Assembly: GCF_037042905.1 (NCBI RefSeq) | Contig: NC_087245.1 | Location: 22,818,001-22,882,000, forward strand | Source: Lytechinus pictus | Taxonomy: Eukaryota | Reading direction: 5' to 3' | Length of the DNA stretch: 64,000 nucleotides | Shown here: piece by piece, positions 2,638 to 36,075 of the stretch | Layout of the letters: each line of letters opens with the position of its first letter | How positions within the stretch are numbered: the stretch's first letter is position 1 | Made by a program: the position numbers and the translations under genes | The notes under the pieces: model-generated | What the model saw: only the letters and a program-made list of their open reading frames with translations | Databases searched by the model: none | What the model was told of the DNA's origin: nothing

Positions 2638-2699
2638 TGTACTATTGCAGTGATATGTCAAAGGCTCCGTCAGTGTAACAATGACCTAGTGGCAATTGT

Positions 2700-5600
2700 T
2701 TCAAACTTCTGCAGGTTTATGGGTGTAAAGATTTGTGTCGCCCTGCGTGTCGCCCTGCGTGGCTGACATGTGGTAGTTTAAGCTCTGATATTTCACGTGT
2801 TTTTCACCATTATATTGTGTACTTTTGGTTTTATTGCTGTATCATGCAAATTTGTTATATGCATGGATTCATTCGGCCAACTTTTGAACCATTTTTTTTT
2901 CCAATATTGGTGTGATCTTTGATATAAGATTTTTTGCATTGGTTTTGATTTGAACTACTCTGTATATGTAAGCCATTTTGTACATGTAGGCTGTGTATTG
3001 TATGTCTACTGCCTACACATATACTGTACTTGGTGCTCACCATTCATGTTCATTCAACTTTAAAGGCTATTGTATTGTTCAAGTAAGTCATTGATCCTAT
3101 AGCATTACAATGGAGCTATTGAGACTTTGGTTCATCTTTAACATTCTATTAACTGCTCAAGTCTCAACTGCAGCTGTGCCAAATCATGTACATGAACATG
3201 GATATCTTCATACTTCAGTATCCTGGATTCATTGCAAGTACTTGAAACACCGCCAGCCATATTATCAGAATTCAACGGCAACATTCCAGTTCCAGTTATT
3301 GAAGTCCGGCGACGTCAACCCCAACCCAGGACCAACAACCGAAAACGCTCCTGGAGAACATTTTGCTCGTAAGCTATCTGCGAGTACATCTTACAATGGA
3401 ACTAATGGACGAATTGTTTATGACAGAGATTTTCTTCTGCAGTGTAACCCTGCATGGAAACATTACAGTCCTGAGGTGGTTACAAATGGACTGTCGAACA
3501 TTGCTCACAAAACAACGAAGAACAGGGGCATGCTCCACGAGAATTTATGGCTTCGGATCAAAGAACTTGGTATCCAGACACGTGTTAGAGGTAAGAGAGG
3601 AGGGCATAAAAGGAATTCTGCGAACAGCTGTAGTCGAAAGAAGCGAGGAAGGAACAACACCAATCTTCAAACAGTGTCGTGTGTTGACAACAATCTTGTA
3701 AGATCTCGTTGCAACGTCTGTTTGTGGAACGCACATTCTATAAGAAATAAAACTACGTATGTTACCGAATATGTTAATGAATATAATATTGATGTTTTGT
3801 GCATTACAGAAACCTGGTTAAGTAATCAGGATAATGTATCAATAGGGGAGTGCACTCCTATAGGATACACATTCATTAACTCTCCAAGAGACGCAAGTAA
3901 ACGTGGAGGAGGGATTGGAGTACTGTATAAAAGTATGCTCAAATTAAAGATTAAGAACATAGATTTCAAGTTTGCCACATTTGAATGCGCTCATATTACC
4001 GATTTGTCAAGCTCTATCCATTTTTTCATTGTGTATAGACCACCCCCTTCTTCAGCAAATAGATTCACAAGTTCTGACTTCTTGAAGGAATTTGATGAAT
4101 ACATATGTGAGATATCACTATGTCCAGGAAAATTGGTGTTATTAGGTGATTTCAACGTCCATTGGGAAGATATGAATAAAAATGATGTGCTTCACATGAG
4201 GAACACCATTTCTTCGGCTGGGCTCATTCAGCATGTCCAAGGTCCAACACACAATCTTGGTCATACTTTAGATCTAGTTTTTACCAGAGATGACTCAGTT
4301 ATCTTACAGTGTCACACATTCGACACTTGTATTTCTGATCATTATATGATTCGTTTTTTATTGGCTCATCAGAAATCAGAGCCAGTCTCTGTTACTTCTT
4401 CCTTACGTAATTATCGCAAGATTGATAAAGCTCAATTCAGTAATGCTTTACTTGACTTAGTTTCATCTCAACCAGAAGATTTAGATAATGTGTCTCTTTT
4501 TGACTGGTATGTTTCTGGCGTCACTAAGGTACTCGATACCTGTGCACCATCTTCAACCAAGTCCCGCCCTCTGAAGCGACGTAGACCCTGGTTTAATCAG
4601 TCTGTACTTGTTGCTCGCCAGCACCGACGTAAAGCAGAACGTAAATGGCGTAAAACACGACTAGATTCAGATCGCACATTGTTCATAGAAGCTAATAGGA
4701 ATGTATGTCAAATCATTGATACCGCTAAAGAAGATTTCTTGAAAGAAAAGTTAGGTTCGTGTTCTGTCAAGGAGGTATATCAGATCATTCATTCACTTTT
4801 GAACAAGAAGTCGAATCAACTTCCCTTATACGAATCTGCAACCAGATTAGCTCATCAATTCTCTTTGTTTTTTGTCAACAAGATAAGGAGAATAAGAGCT
4901 GAACTTGATGCATGTACTGTACCTGTTAACATTCAGTTTAGTGATACTGAAAATCAAAATATTCCACTTTTCGCAGAATTTCAGGTGCTTTCTCAGTCAA
5001 ATGTATCCAGAATCATTATGTCTTCGGCTACTAAATCCTCCCGACTTGACCCGATTCCTACATGGTTTTTGAAAGAAAACATTGTTCATTTATTACCATT
5101 GCTCACAAATGTAATCAATCAATCTCTTTCTACAGGTATTTTCCCTGATCAAGCACATTCAGCAATCATCAAACCTTTTTTGAAGAAATCAGGGTTGGAC
5201 GTAAATGACATCAGTAATTATAGACCGGTCTCAAACTTAACATTTCTAGGTAAACTCATCGAGAAGGCGGCATGTACTCAACTAGCTGATCATATTGAAT
5301 CTAATAATATTTTTGATCCTCTCCAATCTGCCTATAGGCCAGGTCACAGCACCGAGTCAGCTCTGATCAAAGTAAAAAATGATATCATGTTTTCTCTCGA
5401 CTCAAATAATGTAGTTTTTATGGTGCTGTTAGATTTATCTGCCGCGTTTGATACAATAGATCATAACATTTTCATATCTCGGTTATTCAATAGAATAGGC
5501 GTTAGGTCCAAAGTCTTATCCTGGTTCCAATCATACCTGTCTGGATGGACTTCGCAAGTTGATATTGACGGCACATTGTCAAATCCCATAACTCTAGAAT

Positions 5601-6648
5601 TTGGACTCCCTCAGGGGTCAATAGTCGGACCCATAGGCTACTCAATATATACTCTTCCAGTTGGCGACATCATCCGAAATCACTGTATCAATTATCATTT
5701 TTATGCTGACGACATACAACTATACGTTTCTTTTGATCCGAAGACTCCTGGAGCTCTCAATAATGCACTGGTTAAACTCCAGAATTGTATATCAGATATA
5801 AGACAGTGGATGATAGTGAATAAGCTAAAATTAAATGACAAAAAAACTGAATTTTTTGTTGCGGCCTCTACTTATAACTTGCGCAATCTTCCAAATGTTC
5901 AACTTGATGTTGATGGTACACTCTTTAGACCATCAGAAAAAATAAGAAACCTTGGTGTCATATTTGATTCCCGCATGTCAATGTCGTACCATATCTCTCA
6001 TATCTGTAGCACAGTCACTTTTTATTTAAGGAACATTTCTAGAATCAGAAGGTTCATTGACCAGTCTGCCTGTCACAATGCTGTTCGTTCATTGGTTCTG
6101 TCTCGTATTGATTATTGCAATGGGCTCCTTTCTACAATTCCCTCTAATCAATTAATTCGTATTCAACGGCTACAAAATTGGGCAGCACGATTAATTTTAC
6201 AGGTTTCCCGAGATCATCCTTCCCAACCACTCTTTAATTCTCTTCACTGGCTTCCTTTTAAACAGAGAATTACGTTCAAATTACTCTTGATTGTCTACAA
6301 AACACTGAATAAACAGGCTCCACAGTATTTAAGTAACTGCTTGAATCTGTATACACCAACTAGAGCACTTAGGTCGGCCAGTGATCACCTTCGCCTCACA
6401 TATTCATTAACTCGTACATTAGCTGGTGACAGAACTTTTACAGTGTCGGCTTCAAAATCCTGGAACGACCTGCCACTAATAATTAGACAGTCTCCAACAT
6501 TAGCAATTTTCAAAAAGTCATTAAAAACTCATCTCTTTCGTACCTTGTAGTTTTTAAAATATTACATTTAATTAATTCATTGTAAGCGCTTTGGGCCTAA
6601 TGGGAAAAGCGCAGTACAAATAATAAGTAATAATAAAAAAAAAAAAAA
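2700..6648 (+). mobile_element. L2-clade non-LTR retrotransposon, intact ORF2 and 3' end; 5' boundary approximate; no ORF1 seen
   Basis: Intact 1146-aa ORF; 3' stem-loop tgtaagcgctttgggcctaatgggaaaagcgc followed by (taa)n/poly-A; C-terminal LHWLP...ITFK and FKKSLKTHLF motifs typical of L2. Confidence 0.9.
3110..6550 (+). CDS. LINE ORF2: APE endonuclease + reverse transcriptase, with N-terminal extension (signal-like peptide, 2A-like motif, YxxxxLL motif)
   Basis: APE motifs WNAHS, ITETW, VYRPP, GDFN, LDLV, SDH; RT motifs NYRPVSNL, LDLSAAFDTIDH, PQGS, YADD (5702-5713); LLKSGDVNPNPGP at aa 63-75. Confidence 0.95.
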   Translation: MELLRLWFIFNILLTAQVSTAAVPNHVHEHGYLHTSVSWIHCKYLKHRQPYYQNSTATFQFQLLKSGDVNPNPGPTTENAPGEHFARKLSASTSYNGTNGRIVYDRDFLLQCNPAWKHYSPEVVTNGLSNIAHKTTKNRGMLHENLWLRIKELGIQTRVRGKRGGHKRNSANSCSRKKRGRNNTNLQTVSCVDNNLVRSRCNVCLWNAHSIRNKTTYVTEYVNEYNIDVLCITETWLSNQDNVSIGECTPIGYTFINSPRDASKRGGGIGVLYKSMLKLKIKNIDFKFATFECAHITDLSSSIHFFIVYRPPPSSANRFTSSDFLKEFDEYICEISLCPGKLVLLGDFNVHWEDMNKNDVLHMRNTISSAGLIQHVQGPTHNLGHTLDLVFTRDDSVILQCHTFDTCISDHYMIRFLLAHQKSEPVSVTSSLRNYRKIDKAQFSNALLDLVSSQPEDLDNVSLFDWYVSGVTKVLDTCAPSSTKSRPLKRRRPWFNQSVLVARQHRRKAERKWRKTRLDSDRTLFIEANRNVCQIIDTAKEDFLKEKLGSCSVKEVYQIIHSLLNKKSNQLPLYESATRLAHQFSLFFVNKIRRIRAELDACTVPVNIQFSDTENQNIPLFAEFQVLSQSNVSRIIMSSATKSSRLDPIPTWFLKENIVHLLPLLTNVINQSLSTGIFPDQAHSAIIKPFLKKSGLDVNDISNYRPVSNLTFLGKLIEKAACTQLADHIESNNIFDPLQSAYRPGHSTESALIKVKNDIMFSLDSNNVVFMVLLDLSAAFDTIDHNIFISRLFNRIGVRSKVLSWFQSYLSGWTSQVDIDGTLSNPITLEFGLPQGSIVGPIGYSIYTLPVGDIIRNHCINYHFYADDIQLYVSFDPKTPGALNNALVKLQNCISDIRQWMIVNKLKLNDKKTEFFVAASTYNLRNLPNVQLDVDGTLFRPSEKIRNLGVIFDSRMSMSYHISHICSTVTFYLRNISRIRRFIDQSACHNAVRSLVLSRIDYCNGLLSTIPSNQLIRIQRLQNWAARLILQVSRDHPSQPLFNSLHWLPFKQRITFKLLLIVYKTLNKQAPQYLSNCLNLYTPTRALRSASDHLRLTYSLTRTLAGDRTFTVSASKSWNDLPLIIRQSPTLAIFKKSLKTHLFRTL

Positions 6649-28627: not shown

Positions 28628-30259
28628 CACCAATCAACTAATGCGAACGTAAGCATGGACAGGAAATGTTTTATATTAAGACCCTAAAATTGGGCAATCA
28701 CTTTAAGTAGTCATGAAAAAGAAGCAAATGTCACTACATAAAACAATAATAACTCGAAATGTGAGGAAATATATTTGGTGTATATTGATTTGAAAACGGG
28801 AGGTTTTAGTACAACATGATTATACATCTCGTTAAACAGTCCACGCGAGTACCAGGAACAATGAAGACATAGGCCCTGAGCAAACTGTTTCATAAAGTCA
28901 TGAAAAAAATGCTTCTTATGTAAAATAATTATGATAAAATATAACATTATAATAAACAATAATTTTTTTTTTTTGGGGGGGGGGACGTGTCCCCCATGCC
29001 CCCTGGTAGTTACGCCACTGTATAGGTATACAGAAATCACCAATCAAAATGCGAGCGCACAGCGCTAGCTCATAGGCCTTCATTTTGACAATCGAGACAC
29101 CTGAAAATGAATATTTTGAGAATCTTATAGGAAATACACAAAGATAATAGGTAGGCCAACAACATTTTAAAGTTTCGCTTAATTTCACAATTTATATTCA
29201 AATCCTTGTCGGTATGCAAATGAGGAGACTGATGACATCACTCACTCACTACTTCTTTTTGTATTTTAGTATATGAAATATGAAATATTCCATTTTTCTC
29301 TGTTGTCGTGTGAAACAACGATTAATTCCTCCCTGAACATGAGCAATTAGCATTGTTTAATACTAAATGGTTCAATCAAGTTGGTTCATATTGTAAAATC
29401 TGTAAAAAATGAAATATTGTAAAACTCTAACAATAAAAGCAAAGGAATTCGTGAGTGAGGGACATTATCGACTGTCTCATTTGCATGTCACTGAGTTGTG
29501 CATATCACTGTTTTGTGAAAAATAAGCAAAATTTTAAAATGTCATAATTTTCTTATTTTACATCCGATTTTGATGAAATTTTCAGCATAATGCTTGTTTG
29601 ATTTTTCTCTATTTATTCAAATCAACATTTTTTTTTGGGGGGGTGGACTTGTCCTTTAAGAAATGAATGTGAGTGCGAAGCTTTTTCAGTTGTCAGATTA
29701 GAATATAAAATATTTTCAGCTTGTGCTTCTCGTTCGCATAAAAAAAAACCTGTGAGGTTGAGATGCGTATATAACTAAACAGTGATGCGAGCGCGTAGCG
29801 CGAGCTCAATTTTTTATATACTGACTTAAGAAGGACTCTTTTAAGGTATAATTCCTATTCTAAAAGTTTTTCCTTTTTCTCTTCGTCTTTTTTTTTCTTT
29901 TTTTCCCTTTTTTTTGTTGCGCCACCATGGGGGGGGGGGGCAAAAACTTTTCCCCCTGGATCGGCCTATGTATATTGACTTGAAAAACACTAACATTTTA
30001 AGGACTTATGTACGTGTGATCGATGGAGAGGATACACACCTCACTAATCAAATATTGCGAGCGCGTAGCGCCAGCTGAATTTGATATTTACCCCTTTTCT
30101 GACCCTGAACAGGTTACCTATCTTGCAAAACAAACTTCAAACTCGAGCACATTGATTTTTGTCTATTATCGTAAAAACAGGATATTTTAAATCAGCCGCA
30201 TTAATTTAACCTTTTTGGGCAGGAAATAAATTTCACTATAAACAGGCAATACGAGCAAT

Positions 30260-31820
30260 GTTGCGCCCCTGGTCGAACATGAATTTGCATGGAGCCCCCT
30301 AAGTTCAAGGTCAATTTAGCGCCCTCGGTTGAACATGATTTTGGCGCCATGTGAAATATCACTTTGCCCTCCCCCTTCTGAAACATGTCGCCTTATGGTC
30401 AAACATCAAATTAGCGCTCCCCTAGTTCGAACATCAATTTGGCGCCCCGCTAGTTTGAACATCAATTCGGCGCTCCCCTAGTTCGAACATCAATTTGGCG
30501 CCCCGCCCAGTTCAAACATCAATTTGGCGCCCCCATCTAGTTCGAAAATTAGTTCGCCCCCTCCCCCTTGTTCAAACATCAATTCGGCGCCCCATAGTTC
30601 GAACGTCATTTTGGCGCCGCCTAGTTCGAACATCAATTTGGCGCCCCCCTCGTTCGAACATCAATTTGGCGCCCCAAGTTCGAATAGCAATTCGGCGCCC
30701 CCTAGTTCGAACATCAATTTGGCGACCCTAGTTCGAATATTCAATCGGCGCCCCCCTACGTCGAACATCTATTTGGCCTCCCTAGGTCGAACATCAATTT
30801 GGCGCCCCCAGTTGGAACATCAAATTGGCGCCCCTAGTTCGAATATCAATTCGGCGCCCCCTAGTTCAAACATCAATGTGGTGACCCTAGTTCGAACATC
30901 GATTCGGCGCCCCCCCCCCCTAGTTCGAGTATCAATTCGGCGCCCCTACATGTAGGTCGATCATCAATTCGCCCCCCCCCCCTTCCCGTTCGAACATCAA
31001 TTCGACCCCCAGTTCGAACATCATTTTGGCATCCCTTCGAACTGAATTTGGTTTCCCTAGTTCGAAAATCATTTCGCCCCCTAGCTCGAGTATCAATTTG
31101 GCGCCCCCCTAGTTCGAACATCAATTCGGCGCCCCCCTAGTTTGAGTATCAGTTTGGCGCCCCCCTAGCTCGAACATCGATTCGCCCCTCCCCCTAGTTC
31201 GAGTATCAATTTGGCGCCCCCAGTTCGAACATCATTTTAAAATCCCTTCGAACATCATTTTGGCGCCCTCCTAGATCGAATATCAATTCGGCGCCCCTAC
31301 ATGTAGGTCCAACATCAATTTGGCGCCCCATAGTTCGAGTATCAATTTGGCGCACCCTAGTTCCAACATCAATTCTGAGCCCCCCTAGTTCGAGTATCAA
31401 TTTGGCGTCCCCCTAGTTCGAACATCGATTCGGCCCCTCCCCCCCCCTAGTTCGAGTATCAATTTCGCGCCCCCAGTTCGAACATCATTTTAACATCCCT
31501 TCGAACATCATTTCGGCGTCCTCCTAATTCCGAATATCAATTCGGCGCCCCTACATGTAGGTCCAACATCAATTTGGCGCCTCTAGTTCGAATATAATTT
31601 CGGCCCCCCTAGCTCGAGTATCAATTTGGCGCCCCCTAGTTCCAACATCAATTCTGAGCCCCCCTAGTTCGAGTATCAATTTGGCGTCCCCCTAGTTCGA
31701 ACATCGATTCGGCCCCCTCCCCCCCCCTAGTTCGAGTATCAATCTGGCGCCCCCAGTTCGAACATCATTTTGACATTCATTCAAACATCATTTCGGCGCC
31801 CTTTTGGTTCGAACATCATT
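30260..31820 (+). repeat. ~30-bp minisatellite (ctagttcgaacatcaatttggcgccccc)n
   Basis: About 50 degenerate adjacent units with no unique spacers. Confidence 0.9.
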
Positions 31821-33410
31821 TTCTTTCCTCCTCTTCCTCTTTTTTTCTTCTCGTCCTTCCCCTCTTCCTCTCTCCTTTTCTTCTTTTCTTTCTCTCTTTT
31901 TTTTCTCTTCTTTCCACCCTCTTCCTCTCTCCTTTTTCTCCTTTTCTTTCCCCTCTTCCTCTTTTTTCTTCCCCCTCTCCCCCTCCCTTTTCTTCTCTTC
32001 CTTTCCCCTTTTCTTCCCCCTTCTCTCTCTTTTTTTCTCTTCTTTCTTCCCTTTTCCTCTCTCTCCTTTTTCGTCTTTTCCTTTCCCTTCTTCCTCTCTC
32101 TTCCCCCCTCTTCTTTCCCTGCTTCCTCTTTTTTCTTCCCCCTCCCCCTCCCTTTTTCTTCTCTTCCTTCCCCCTCTTCCTCTTTTTTCTCTTTCTTTCC
32201 CCTCTTCTTCTCCTATTTTTTCTTCTTTTCTTTCCCCTCTTCTTTTTTCTTCTTTTCTTTCCCCTCTCTTTTTTCTTCTCTTCTTTCCTCCCTCTTCCTC
32301 TCTCTCCTTTTCTTTTCCCCTCTTCCTCTTTTTTCTTCCCCCTCTCCTTCCCCCTCCCTTTTCTTCTCTTCTTCTTTTTTCTCCTTTTCTCCTCTTTTTC
32401 CTCTCTCTCTTTTTCTTCTCTTCCTTTCCCCTCTTCCCCTCTCTCTTTTTTTTTCTCCTTTTCCTTTCCCTCTCTTTTTCCTTCTCTTTCTTTCCCCTTT
32501 TCCTCTCCCTTTTCCTTCCCTTCCTTCCCCCTCTTCCCTTTTCTTCTTTTCTTTCCCCCCCTTTTCCTCTCTCTTTTTTCTTCCCTTCTTCCCCCTCTTG
32601 TTTTCTTCTTTTCTTTCCCCTCTTTTTTCTCTTTCTTTCCCTCTCTTCTTTTTTTTCTCTTCTTTCCACCCTCTTCCTCTCTCCTTTTTCTCCTTTTCTT
32701 TCCCCTCTTCCTCTTTTTTCTTCCCCCTCTCCCCCTCCCTTTTCTTCTCTTCCTTTCCCCTTTTCTTCCCCCTTCTCTCTCTTTTTTTCTCTTCTTTCTT
32801 CCCTTTTCCTCTCTCTCCTTTTTCGTCTTTTCCTTTCCCTTCTTCCTCTCTCTTCCCCCCTCTTCTTTCCCTGCTTCCTCTTTTTTCTTCCCCCTCCCCC
32901 TCCCTTTTTCTTCTCTTCCTTCCCCCTCTTCCTCTTTTTTCTCTTTCTTTCCCCTCTTCTTCTCCTATTTTTTCTTCTTTTCTTTCCCCTCTTCTTTTTT
33001 CTTCTTTTCTTTCCCCTCTCTTTTTTCTTCTCTTCTTTCCTCCCTCTTCCTCTCTCTCCTTTTCTTTTCCCCTCTTCCTCTTTTTTCTTCCCCCTCTCCT
33101 TCCCCCTCCCTTTTCTTCTCTTCTTCTTTTTTCTCCTTTTCTCCTCTTTTTCCTCTCTCTCTTTTTCTTCTCTTCCTTTCCCCTCTTCCCCTCTCTCTTT
33201 TTTTTTCTCCTTTTCCTTTCCCTCTCTTTTTCCTTCTCTTTCTTTCCCCTTTTCCTCTCCCTTTTCCTTCCCTTCCTTCCCCCTCTTCCCTTTTCTTCTT
33301 TTCTTTCCCCCCCTTTTCCTCTCTCTTTTTTCTTCCCTTCTTCCCCCTCTTGTTTTCTTCTTTTCTTTCCCCTCTTTTTTCTCTTTCTTTCCCTCTCTTC
33401 TTTTTTTTTT
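31817..33410 (+). repeat. ~1.6-kb polypyrimidine tract made of a ~752-bp tandem duplication
   Basis: Almost only C/T; rare purine landmarks (ttccaccc at ~31912 and ~32664, tcgtc, ctgct, cctatt) recur with the same ~752-bp spacing. Confidence 0.85.
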
Positions 33411-36075
33411 GCCGAAGGGGGGGGGGGGGGGGGCCAAGGCCCCCTCGGCCCCCCCCCCCCATGGATCCGCGCCTGGGAGACAGTGCTACTTTCTGCTATG
33501 GTTTGCCATCTAGAGCAGCTCCGCCTTGTTTGTATGACGTTGATCTCGCCGGCATACATGCCAATCACATTTCACATGATCGGGAATGCGAGGAGAATGA
33601 GAGTAAAATGGATGATAGTCATGAGATTGATAATCATAACACATTAGGGACCACTGTCAAACAAATAAACACTATCATACACAAAGAAGATGATGAATAT
33701 GAGACAAGTGATACTAGCGAGATGAATAAATCTAATACTAATAGTAACGATTGTAAATCTCGGAATGAAGACCGAAGAGATGAGACCAGTGATGGTGAGG
33801 TGCTTGAAACTAACAAAGGTGAAATGAAACCATGCAATGTAGATGATGGTTACGAGAGTAGTGATGGTGGAGGTAATGACTCTAACATAGTTAATGTGAA
33901 ACAATGTAATGCAGTTGATGGATACATGACTTGTGTTGGTGAGGTGAATATAACAAACAGTGCCGACATGAAAGGATGGAATGAAGAGGTTGAGTATGCA
34001 ACTAGTGATAGTCTGGTTTATGAAAGTGACTTTGCCTGACGTGATGGTATTGCCTAACCTGACTTTGCCAAACGTGTCGCCTCATATGCTACTGAATCGC
34101 TGCATTGGTAGCAACCGTGTCGTTGACCGTGGAGGTACCGTGCTGCCTCTTGATCAAAGGTTTGACACTTTCGGATGTGTTAATACCGTGTCTGTTACAC
34201 CATCGGCCGATTTGGTGTTACCCTTTGATGCGAGTAACAGCCACAGAGCAAACACCGGGGTAACCACTATGCCTCTGTGCCCGGCTAACGTCAGCAGCAG
34301 TAGCTCTACTTCGCAAGCTATCCATCTGGCACGGGTACCATGTGTCGTGGATGGGTTGATCTCGCAGAACTTTCAGTCGGTCACCCTGCAAGCACCACCT
34401 CCAACTGAATGTCCGTACTCGGCTAGCATCTCAATCGCTAATACCCATGTTCATTCCATCTGTACTGATGTCGCATGCCATACTCGCCCTCCAGATCTGC
34501 CCCATGCTATTCCAGAGCATGGTCCTGCTGGTCTGTCCACCCCTGAAGGATGTCGTCAGGCTCGTTCGCCAGGTCAGCCCCATGCTAGTCTAGGGCATGG
34601 TCCTGCTGATCTGTCTGCCCCTGAAGGATGTCATGGTCGTCCGCCTGACCGGCCCCATGCTATATCCCGGAGCATGCATGGTCCTGCTGGTCTGTCTATC
34701 CCAGTGGTAGAGCTTCACAGACCGTATGATGTTGGTCCCTACCTGGGAATATTCTTCATGGTTCTCGCTTATCAATGCTACAGAGACATTTGTTGTTTGA
34801 TACAGTGTTAGCTCGCCTTGCTTTCAAGACCTTTGATTACATAGACATACCTTCTTTTCATGGACAGTGACTCCTCTACATTTGTTCCTAGCTTGGACTA
34901 ATGGACTCCCACGCTACCATGTGATTGTGAGGAACGAACTGGTAAAAATATCTTCACTTGAATGCCTGAACCGCCTCTTTATTTTTTTTTACCATATGGA
35001 CGGTTTTTAATACTCCATTGATTCTTTATGCCATGATGTTTGTTATGTTCTTATGGTTTTTATGTCCATGCATTGCATGTGTACATGCACTTCAACTATG
35101 ATCTATGTTATATGGATTGATTGCAAAAGTTATTGTAATAAACAGTTATATGATTTTGTGTGTGATTTATGTTGCATTTTGGGCGAGTGATTTAAGGGTC
35201 ATGATAGTTGTTGGTTGTATGAATGTGGTGTGTTATGGTGGTATGTAGCTATTGATGTTTGTTTAACATTTACTAACTGTTGACTTGTTCCTAATGATCT
35301 ATGAAACAGTGATTTCTTCTGTATCTTCATAGCCCTTTTTTTAAATATTGTTTTGAATGATTATTTAAGCATTTTAGTCAGACAGTGTAGTTATATGGTC
35401 ACAAGTTGTGGATAAGTGGCTGTTTTCAGTATTTGATCCATTTTTCTATTTGCAAGTACTTTTGATCTCATTGCAAAGGTATGATAATAATTCTGTAATT
35501 TTATCTTGTTTTTGTGCCATCCTAAATTTATTTTATGATACACAGATGATTTAGCTGTTCAGGATGAGGCTGTCGAACTGTGTATTTAATCTATTTGTTA
35601 TGTGGATATGTTGCAATGAGAGATCATTGTTTTTATTTCATTATTTTGACCATTTGCCCATATGCATCTTTTCCTTTTTCATGCAGGTTTACGGTTGTTC
35701 AATTTGTGCCGAAAATTGGTATTTAGTGCACAGCATTAATTTAGCCTTGTGTTTTGGGGTAGATTGGGGTCGAGTTTTTGCTCTTGATAATTTGATGCCT
35801 AGATAGGTAGGATGATTTGTTGTTTACCCCTTTTTAAGCCCACATATGTGTTTTTCCCATTCTTGATGACGGGGAGAGATGGGAAGTAGTGATGCTCTAT
35901 GATGTTATTTGAATTGTGACCTTTGTTGTGTTCATATGTTAGTTTAATATTCAACTCATTATGATACATTGGTGTCTAGATTTTTCAGAGTCTTACACCA
36001 GCGAAGGTCTACCCTTTTTATTTAATAGTGAGCTAATTACGAATCATCATGATTTTATTATACAGATTATATTGT

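Follow-up and report, generated by a model that had tools for sequence, protein, structure and literature searches.

We have identified a predicted bipartite eIF4E-binding module in the ORF2 protein (ORF2p) of a single-ORF LINE, and the module is well supported computationally by sequence comparison and structural modelling. Such a module has apparently not been described in LINE ORF2p so far. It quite probably binds some protein of the eIF4E family. The element lies in a window of 64,000 nucleotides of Lytechinus pictus (NC_087245.1, positions 22,818,001 to 22,882,000), where the window means the whole stretch of DNA that was analysed. The finding bears on the way in which LINEs that lack ORF1 select their RNA and pass from its translation to its reverse transcription. 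The features of the element are as follows.

2748..6648, + strand: full-length single-ORF L2-type non-LTR retrotransposon, delimited by a shared 5' end, 3' matches, and an A-rich tail
2748..3109, + strand: U-rich 5' UTR of 362 nt with eight upstream ATGs and no ORF1
2749..2767, + strand: 5'-terminal hairpin (3 bp, one bulged base, and 2-4 bp) that is common to distant families
3110..3175, + strand: signal-like hydrophobic leader, aa 1-22, with the ATG in the context ACAATGG
3236..3334, + strand: extended 2A-like tract, aa 43-75, with the core GDVNPNPG/P at 3308-3334 and Glu replaced by Asn
3335..3409, + strand: variable linker, aa 76-100, pLDDT ~42
3410..3448, + strand: canonical eIF4E-binding-like motif RIVYDRDFLLQCN with Y104, L109, and L110, assigned on conservation and a complex model
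3545..3574, + strand: non-canonical helix LWLRIKELGI with L146, I150, L153, and I155, spaced as the second motif of Cup
3587..3655, + strand: RGKRGG and basic tract, a candidate RNA-binding or nuclear-import segment
3725..4342, + strand: APE endonuclease domain, aa 206-411, PF03372 with E 1e-18, pLDDT mostly >90
5192..5962, + strand: reverse transcriptase (RT) domain, aa 695-951, PF00078 with E 2e-32
6580..6619, + strand: 3' stem-loop ahead of the A-rich tail, -15.2 kcal/mol, z -3.0

One frame is open at 3110-6550 (+) and encodes 1146 aa, in which APE and RT are the only domains above the Pfam cut-off. APE and RT in one ORF without ORF1 is the arrangement that defines 2A-bearing APE non-LTR retrotransposons. 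The absence of ORF1 that the first-pass annotation had claimed is borne out, as the 362-nt 5' UTR has ORFs of 30 codons at most and the 5' end at ~2748 is common to three further copies (L002-L004) with identity of 95-99%. Shared 5' starts lie 498-585 nt upstream of the 'GD' of 2A in 6 of the 8 families compared. The 3' matches that were scored (40 out of 417 candidates, self included) are 98-100% identical, which points to recent multiplication of the family. The element is thus an intact, recently multiplied single-ORF L2-type LINE, with its RT placed by eye. The L2 assignment rests on likeness by eye of the window RT to STR-51_SP (L2) in the accessible part of the supplement of PMC3708506, and the RT tree holds no named reference rows.

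In the window copy, 12 nt of the 5' end are also duplicated in tandem at 2735-2758, which is not the case in L002-L004. A short repeat at 2500-2634, just 5' of the element, is matched by thousands of diverged RNA reads that are mostly in one orientation; it is SINE- or MITE-like, and no tRNA gene was called over 2200-2800. The tract at 30001-36000 of the window exhibits very strong GC and AT skew, down to -0.65, and probably consists of simple repeats or satellite DNA.

The 2A-bearing single-ORF LINE is a known type, and 2A sites in such elements have already been published (PMC3708506, accessible part). The sea-urchin elements STR-51/61/142/197_SP also have one ORF, with a 2A-like site placed 40-80 aa into the protein (Odon et al., 2013; PMC3708506), and the 2A-like motif of the window element at aa 67-75 lies inside that range. 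Frequent loss of the Glu in 2A is described for them as well. The tract between 2A and APE comprises 90-115 aa in those elements and ~125 aa in the window element. This tract after 2A is the new part, and it was said to have "no motifs suggesting a function" in the accessible text, which mentions neither a hydrophobic leader nor eIF4E, unlike the features found here.

The three motifs that had been placed ahead of APE were all recovered in the 1146-aa ORF, namely the hydrophobic leader, LLKSGDVNPNPGP at aa 63-75 (nt 3296-3334), and YDRDFLL at aa 104-110 (nt 3419-3439). The last has R at +2 and N at +9, and the window copy conforms to the canonical YX4LΦ. Not noted in the first-pass annotation are a second conserved helix, predicted from the sequence, which gives the site two parts, and the basic RG tract behind that helix. 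The order of the module is therefore YxxxxL, W..I..LGI helix, and basic RGxRG. The basic tract has 11 K/R and zero D/E in aa 155-185, and its R is invariant in alignment A1. When aa 76-200 were shuffled 5000 times, 2% of the shuffles gave the strict motif YxxxxL[LMF] and 0.02% gave the extended motif [RK]xxYxRxxL[LMF], and a further strict match is found inside APE at aa 412. The 2% chance level and this second match make the bare motif weak proof, and the case is carried by conservation.

Five full-length homologues retain the Y and L of the motif when read by eye (the aligner misplaced P0005), and the preceding linker is divergent in them, with 1-11 identities out of 23; its length is 7-37 aa over 66 relatives. 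The retention of YxxxxLL and its spacing across relatives was found in part. Y and L are kept. Of 138 relatives, 80 have L/M/F at +6 (Φ) and 98 have a hydrophobic residue of any kind there; 17 have His and 9 have Arg. Loci with His at +6 include L048 and L056. The strict Φ is found in just 29 of 64 members of the 2A class. The helix positions 146, 150, 153, and 155 are hydrophobic in 65%, 89%, 100%, and 100% of 122 relatives, where the last two figures follow partly from how the helix was located. The distance from Y to I has a median of 30 aa in the 122 relatives, which falls in the published range for the hydrophobic second motif (~15-30 residues in the sources, as far as accessible); in the window copy, lengthened by an insertion, it is 51 aa. 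The insertion of ~20 aa between the two motifs (aa 116-143, 3455-3538) is shared by the window subfamily, which includes L046 and L015.

The same-genome set consisted of 20 of the 150 listed matches that were chosen for long open frames, and its query included the motif. All 20 loci exhibit the hydrophobic leader and the 2A-like tract, and 18 of them exhibit YxxxxL (one as YxxxxM), the W..I..LGI helix, and the basic RG tract after 2A. The other two, L057 and L058, do not have the module, and their 2A runs nearly straight into APE, so the module is dispensable in some lineages. In the RT tree of 28 rows (L052 omitted for its short RT match), the module is found in four deep lineages with RT identity to the window of 25-33% outside its own lineage. 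These lineages are L2-, Crack-, CR1-, and Rex1-like by eye against the accessible supplement of PMC3708506, and L055 resembles STR-197_SP (Rex1). Two Crack-like loci, L048 and L052, have a Cys-rich finger, which we take to be PHD-like, between the module and APE, and many module-less relatives have one right after 2A.

A further comparison was blind to the motif. A profile of the 2A tract only was used, for which the best 120 of 159 matches were listed. From these, 51 were dropped (1 with the motif not located, 23 with <70 aa downstream, and 27 redundant), which left 69 non-redundant relatives. The helix/RG part, scored by a profile without the Tyr motif, is present in 28 and absent in 41 of the 69. 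YxxxxL/M occurs 4-40 aa after PGP in 25 of the 28 relatives with the helix/RG part (shuffle mean 4.4, max 12, 2000 shuffles) against 5 of the 41 without it. The Fisher p of 8e-11 for this contrast overstates the case because the rows are related, and the counts given here carry no correction for relatedness. The three misses include one F for Y and one 3-residue duplication. Conservation of the motif across the family is supported.

The module profile matched 327 representatives at E <=0.001, and the named carriers are sea urchins, a brittle star, a crinoid, an acorn worm, and a limpet. Among the best 150 of these 327 matches, the module comes after a 2A-like site in 66; in 61 it lacks 2A but has a Met within 8 residues, and in the remaining 23 it has neither. 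It had been suggested that ribosomal skipping would leave the module near a new N-terminus; this agrees with the sequences, and the nearby Met has the same effect without 2A in the 61 matches. In the 2A-only search, coral-named members were found in 2 of the 10 clusters looked up, and both representatives are module-less. The precomputed family PF28493 marks the relatives P0190, P0208, P0243, P0247, P0259, and P0266, and a Pfam scan of P0243 did not return it.

The likeness to 4E-BP that had been pointed out recurs in sequence matches that are below significance. When the module profile was compared with 177,635 PDB sequences, the top match was the 4E-BP1 peptide (E 0.098), and 4E-BP1 accounted for 6 of 8 matches; RPC6 and HIV Tat, which were also matched, are at chance level. 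A profile of 30 short, mostly 2A-less module matches (alignment A4) gave no PDB match at E <=10. Pfam eIF_4EBP (PF05456) matches weakly at aa 97-121 (E 0.015-0.06, 13.7-15.6 bits over ~22 residues), which is under its cut-off of 24 bits, and even such a weak match is found in just 1 of 17 members of alignment A1. A score below this cut-off argues for a mimic and not for a member of the 4E-BP family. Foldseek of the isolated module gave nothing at E <=0.001; two of its four matches at E 5-9 are eIF4E-bound peptides (4ueb_B and 5wb5_B), which are not significant and were not counted. The best ESM Atlas score was 0.86, to unnamed clusters, and serves as a lead only.

The modelled complex of sea-urchin eIF4E P0007 (aa 32-227) and window aa 99-174 scored 0.89, whereas none of three controls scored above 0.03. 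The runs share at least 81% of contacts, and the partner pLDDT is at least 55. Among microbial pairs, the mark used is attained by 51 of 78 that are solved and by 2 of 108 that are mismatched; for eukaryotic pairs the figures are 39 of 65 and 2 of 126, respectively. Peptides and disordered chains lie outside this calibration, and one copy and one eIF4E paralogue were modelled. The model agrees with the docking on eIF4E that had been anticipated, and on the right surface. As in Cup, the first motif is predicted to occupy the dorsal face of eIF4E, and the helix is predicted to fill the lateral pocket. Y104, L109, L110, and C112 would contact H47, V79, W83, L145, and I148-E150 of eIF4E. The predicted interface also includes window residues 146, 149-150, and 153-159, and the eIF4E side includes F57, V73, and I89. 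By offset from Trp, V73 and I89 correspond to I96 and I112 of the lateral pocket in Drosophila, and the spacing of L146/I150/L153/I155 equals that of Cup L364/L368/M371/I373 (PMC4164784, accessible part). Because 4E-BP complexes have been solved, the score and the canonical contact may reflect memory of, or likeness to, those structures. The predicted second (lateral) contact is the more telling one. In the AlphaFold2 prediction, the tail is disordered apart from short helices at the two motifs, and APE is modelled with confidence.

The same data were weighed against a different role, in which the module would be a small element for RNA binding or nuclear import, its likeness to 4E-BP would be coincidental, and its hydrophobic residues would pack mutually or on another partner. 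The +8 position is hydrophobic in 134 of 138 relatives, exceeding +6, a basic RG tract is attached, and the sequence matches to 4E-BP are below significance, all of which would suit such an element. On the other hand, the isolated module is not predicted to fold compactly (pTM 0.34), both motifs dock in the model on two known surfaces of eIF4E with Cup-like spacing, and the +8 residue contacts W83 and V79 there. We consider this reading unlikely.

It is improbable, in our judgement, that the true partner is another member of the eIF4E family, e.g., 4EHP, through which the RNA would be silenced or stored. eIF4E-family matches are found on three contigs of the genome, the relaxed +6 could mirror a different paralogue, and a pass by the complex tool does not discriminate between family members. 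Against this, the class-I-like P0007 already scores 0.89 as the only paralogue modelled. The host eIF4E exon is 99% identical to the Lytechinus pictus protein.

Known eIF4E binders exhibit a similar architecture. Cup, Thor/4E-BP, 4E-T, Mextli, yeast p20, and Eap1 likewise pair YX4L with a downstream amphipathic helix that docks in the lateral pocket, both within a disordered stretch (PMC4164784, PMC4573856, and PMC6061780, as far as accessible), and the second motif of Cup has a spacing identical to that of the window helix (PMC4164784). Unlike these binders, the window module is encoded by a mobile element, is fused to APE-RT, has a relaxed Φ, and falls under the Pfam eIF_4EBP cut-off. Among the papers listed, which do not extend to subscription journals and Repbase notes, none was found to describe LINE ORF2p with an eIF4E-binding motif or with a leader resembling a signal peptide. 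In the accessible part of PMC3439904, retrotransposons and the motif are both named but never together.

The module is preceded by a leader and a 2A-like tract that are themselves conserved. The best 11-residue Kyte-Doolittle window (KD11) of the leader is 2.1, a moderate value that still qualifies as an N-terminal hydrophobic core, and the small residues at aa 19-22 are, we assume by eye, compatible with a signal-peptide cleavage site. KD11 of at least 2.0 within the first 30 aa is found in 21 of 24 module-bearing relatives (expected 5.2) and 26 of 35 module-less relatives (expected 4.7), i.e., in 47 of 59 overall against ~10 expected. The start codon looks selected because ACA precedes ATG in 14 of 19 families. 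Some 2A-less elements (P0038, P0083, P0088, P0111, P0167, and others) have an in-frame hydrophobic extension and a second Met right before the Tyr motif. Among extensions of at least 25 aa in such elements, 14 of 16 have KD11 of at least 2.0, T-rich UTR sequence being uncontrolled for; leaky scanning might take the place of 2A there.

The 2A tract departs from the canonical D(V/I)ExNPGP under which it had been listed, as Asn replaces the Glu. That Glu is kept in just 13 of 112 relatives, and F, G, D, N, P, G, and P are invariant over 19 families. The strongly conserved Glu-less 33-residue class is a natural test set for the rules of StopGo. The E-to-N 2A of the sea-urchin LINE STR-197_SP was active, described as low (PMC3708506, accessible part), and protein abundance was reduced for 59% of the tested ORF2p 2A-like peptides in the accessible part of a 2026 preprint (bioRxiv 2026.06.17.732966). 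In sea-urchin NLR proteins, 2A-like signal sequences likewise combine signal and 2A recoding and set secretion against the cytosol (Roulston et al., 2016; PMC4981915, accessible part). In that case one 26-aa peptide of a host gene does both, whereas the h-region and 2A of the LINE are ~45 aa apart. Yeast Ty1 RNA is translated with SRP at the ER (Doh et al., 2014; PMC3945221), which resembles the putative ER routing of the LINE product. Ty1 differs in being an LTR element that acts through Gag, and neither 2A nor an eIF4E motif is mentioned in the accessible text.

The leader, 2A, and the motif had been taken as one three-part system. An obligatory unit of this kind is not supported, as leader and 2A occur without helix/RG in 41 of 69 relatives and the module also occurs without 2A. 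These comparisons make leader+2A and the eIF4E module separable cassettes. A functional secreted peptide had also been proposed. Residues 23-42 are not conserved, the conserved part being the 2A tract of ~33 residues, which argues against a secreted effector peptide. The combination of such a peptide with general translation shut-off is very improbable. Free bipartite 4E-BP peptides repress reporters (PMC4164784, accessible part) and the signal-like leader is family-wide, but the would-be mature peptide is conserved in its 2A part only, and ORF2p is thought to be scarce (PMC3708506, accessible part). General shut-off, which the first-pass annotation had raised, is unsupported and would be unlikely for a scarce protein.

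A mechanism can be proposed from the evidence in hand, which comprises sequence, conservation, modularity, the absence of ORF1, and the structural model. We regard it as evenly balanced whether the leader and 2A ration or route the product while nascent ORF2p captures eIF4E on its own mRNA, ends translation, and keeps the template. The first cassette, the leader and degenerate 2A, would set the amount of usable enzyme. The ribosome exit tunnel holds 30-40 residues. With a median distance from Met to the 'GD' of 2A of 68 aa with the module and 92 aa without it, the hydrophobic core would be fully exposed at the PG/P pause. The ribosome would pause there just after this segment has cleared the tunnel. 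Skipping would release a cytosolic APE-RT that begins at P75, and ribosomes that do not skip would yield a signal-tagged product destined for the ER or for destruction.

The second cassette would be a Cup-type bipartite eIF4E-binding element in a disordered tail, followed by the basic RG tract. ORF2p, as it emerges, may grip in cis the cap-bound eIF4E of the mRNA that encodes it. eIF4G would be displaced (no eIF4G-type domain was found in ORF2p), and further initiation would stop. The RG tract would hold the RNA, and the mRNA would be reserved as the template for reverse transcription. The outcome would be cis-preference and a switch from translation to replication without ORF1p.

Bipartite binding is also used by metazoan eIF4G (PMC6061780, accessible part) and is thus no proof of repression; the direction of the effect is what we infer. 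The module may bind eIF4E for other ends: it could retain the factor on the element's RNA so as to favour translation despite the upstream ATGs, it could shield the cap, or it could travel with eIF4E to granules or into the nucleus. The profile, model, and motif-blind evidence serve this reading as well as they serve capture, the translation promoters eIF4G and Mextli use both surfaces too in the sources as far as accessible, and there are eight upstream ATGs in the UTR. However, Pfam gives no ribosome recruiter beside APE and RT, and the protein must exist before it could help. Binding for such ends does not seem likely to us. In the UTRs of L046-L065, depletion of upstream ATGs is no more than mild (125 against 151 +/- 9).

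The 5' end of the RNA offers a candidate partner for the RG tract, namely the 5'-terminal hairpin. Across 14 5' ends, delimited by hand and eye with 5 of 19 families left out, 66 of 70 cells are paired, whereas the null with swapped arms has a mean of 57.3 and reaches 66 in 0 of 5000 trials. Compensatory and G-U changes are found among families with RT identity as low as 25%. The UTRs also contain GCCAT in 14 of 19 cases of L046-L065 (shuffle mean 4.5, max 10), at ~2972 in the window. It may belong to an internal promoter. We presume that it resembles a YY1 site.

No RNA runs are on record among the sequence holders listed. In three raw RNA runs (~6% of each), coverage of the ORF was low on either strand, and coverage of 2644-3075 was zero; these runs are uninformative on start or splicing, and no splice joint within the element was found in them. 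A contig of one guessed-RNA run covers 2917-3591 unspliced. A hidden intron in the 5' UTR is unsupported.

Taking capture of eIF4E by nascent ORF2p further, we put forward tentatively, as a possibility about which we are more doubtful, that several ORF1-less LINE clades of marine invertebrates share an exchangeable front end that forms a self-capture device. This front end would consist of the cap-proximal hairpin, the signal-plus-stall leader, and the Cup-like eIF4E clamp with its RG tract. Nascent ORF2p would grip eIF4E and the 5' hairpin of its own mRNA, end translation, and commit the RNA to reverse transcription. If true, the transposon would encode a mimic of 4E-BP, and cis-preference would have a physical basis at the 5' end. 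The idea is testable, as the module has 55 residues and the residues on both partners are named. If it holds, a tract published as motif-less would acquire a function, and mobile elements would join the eIF4E binders.
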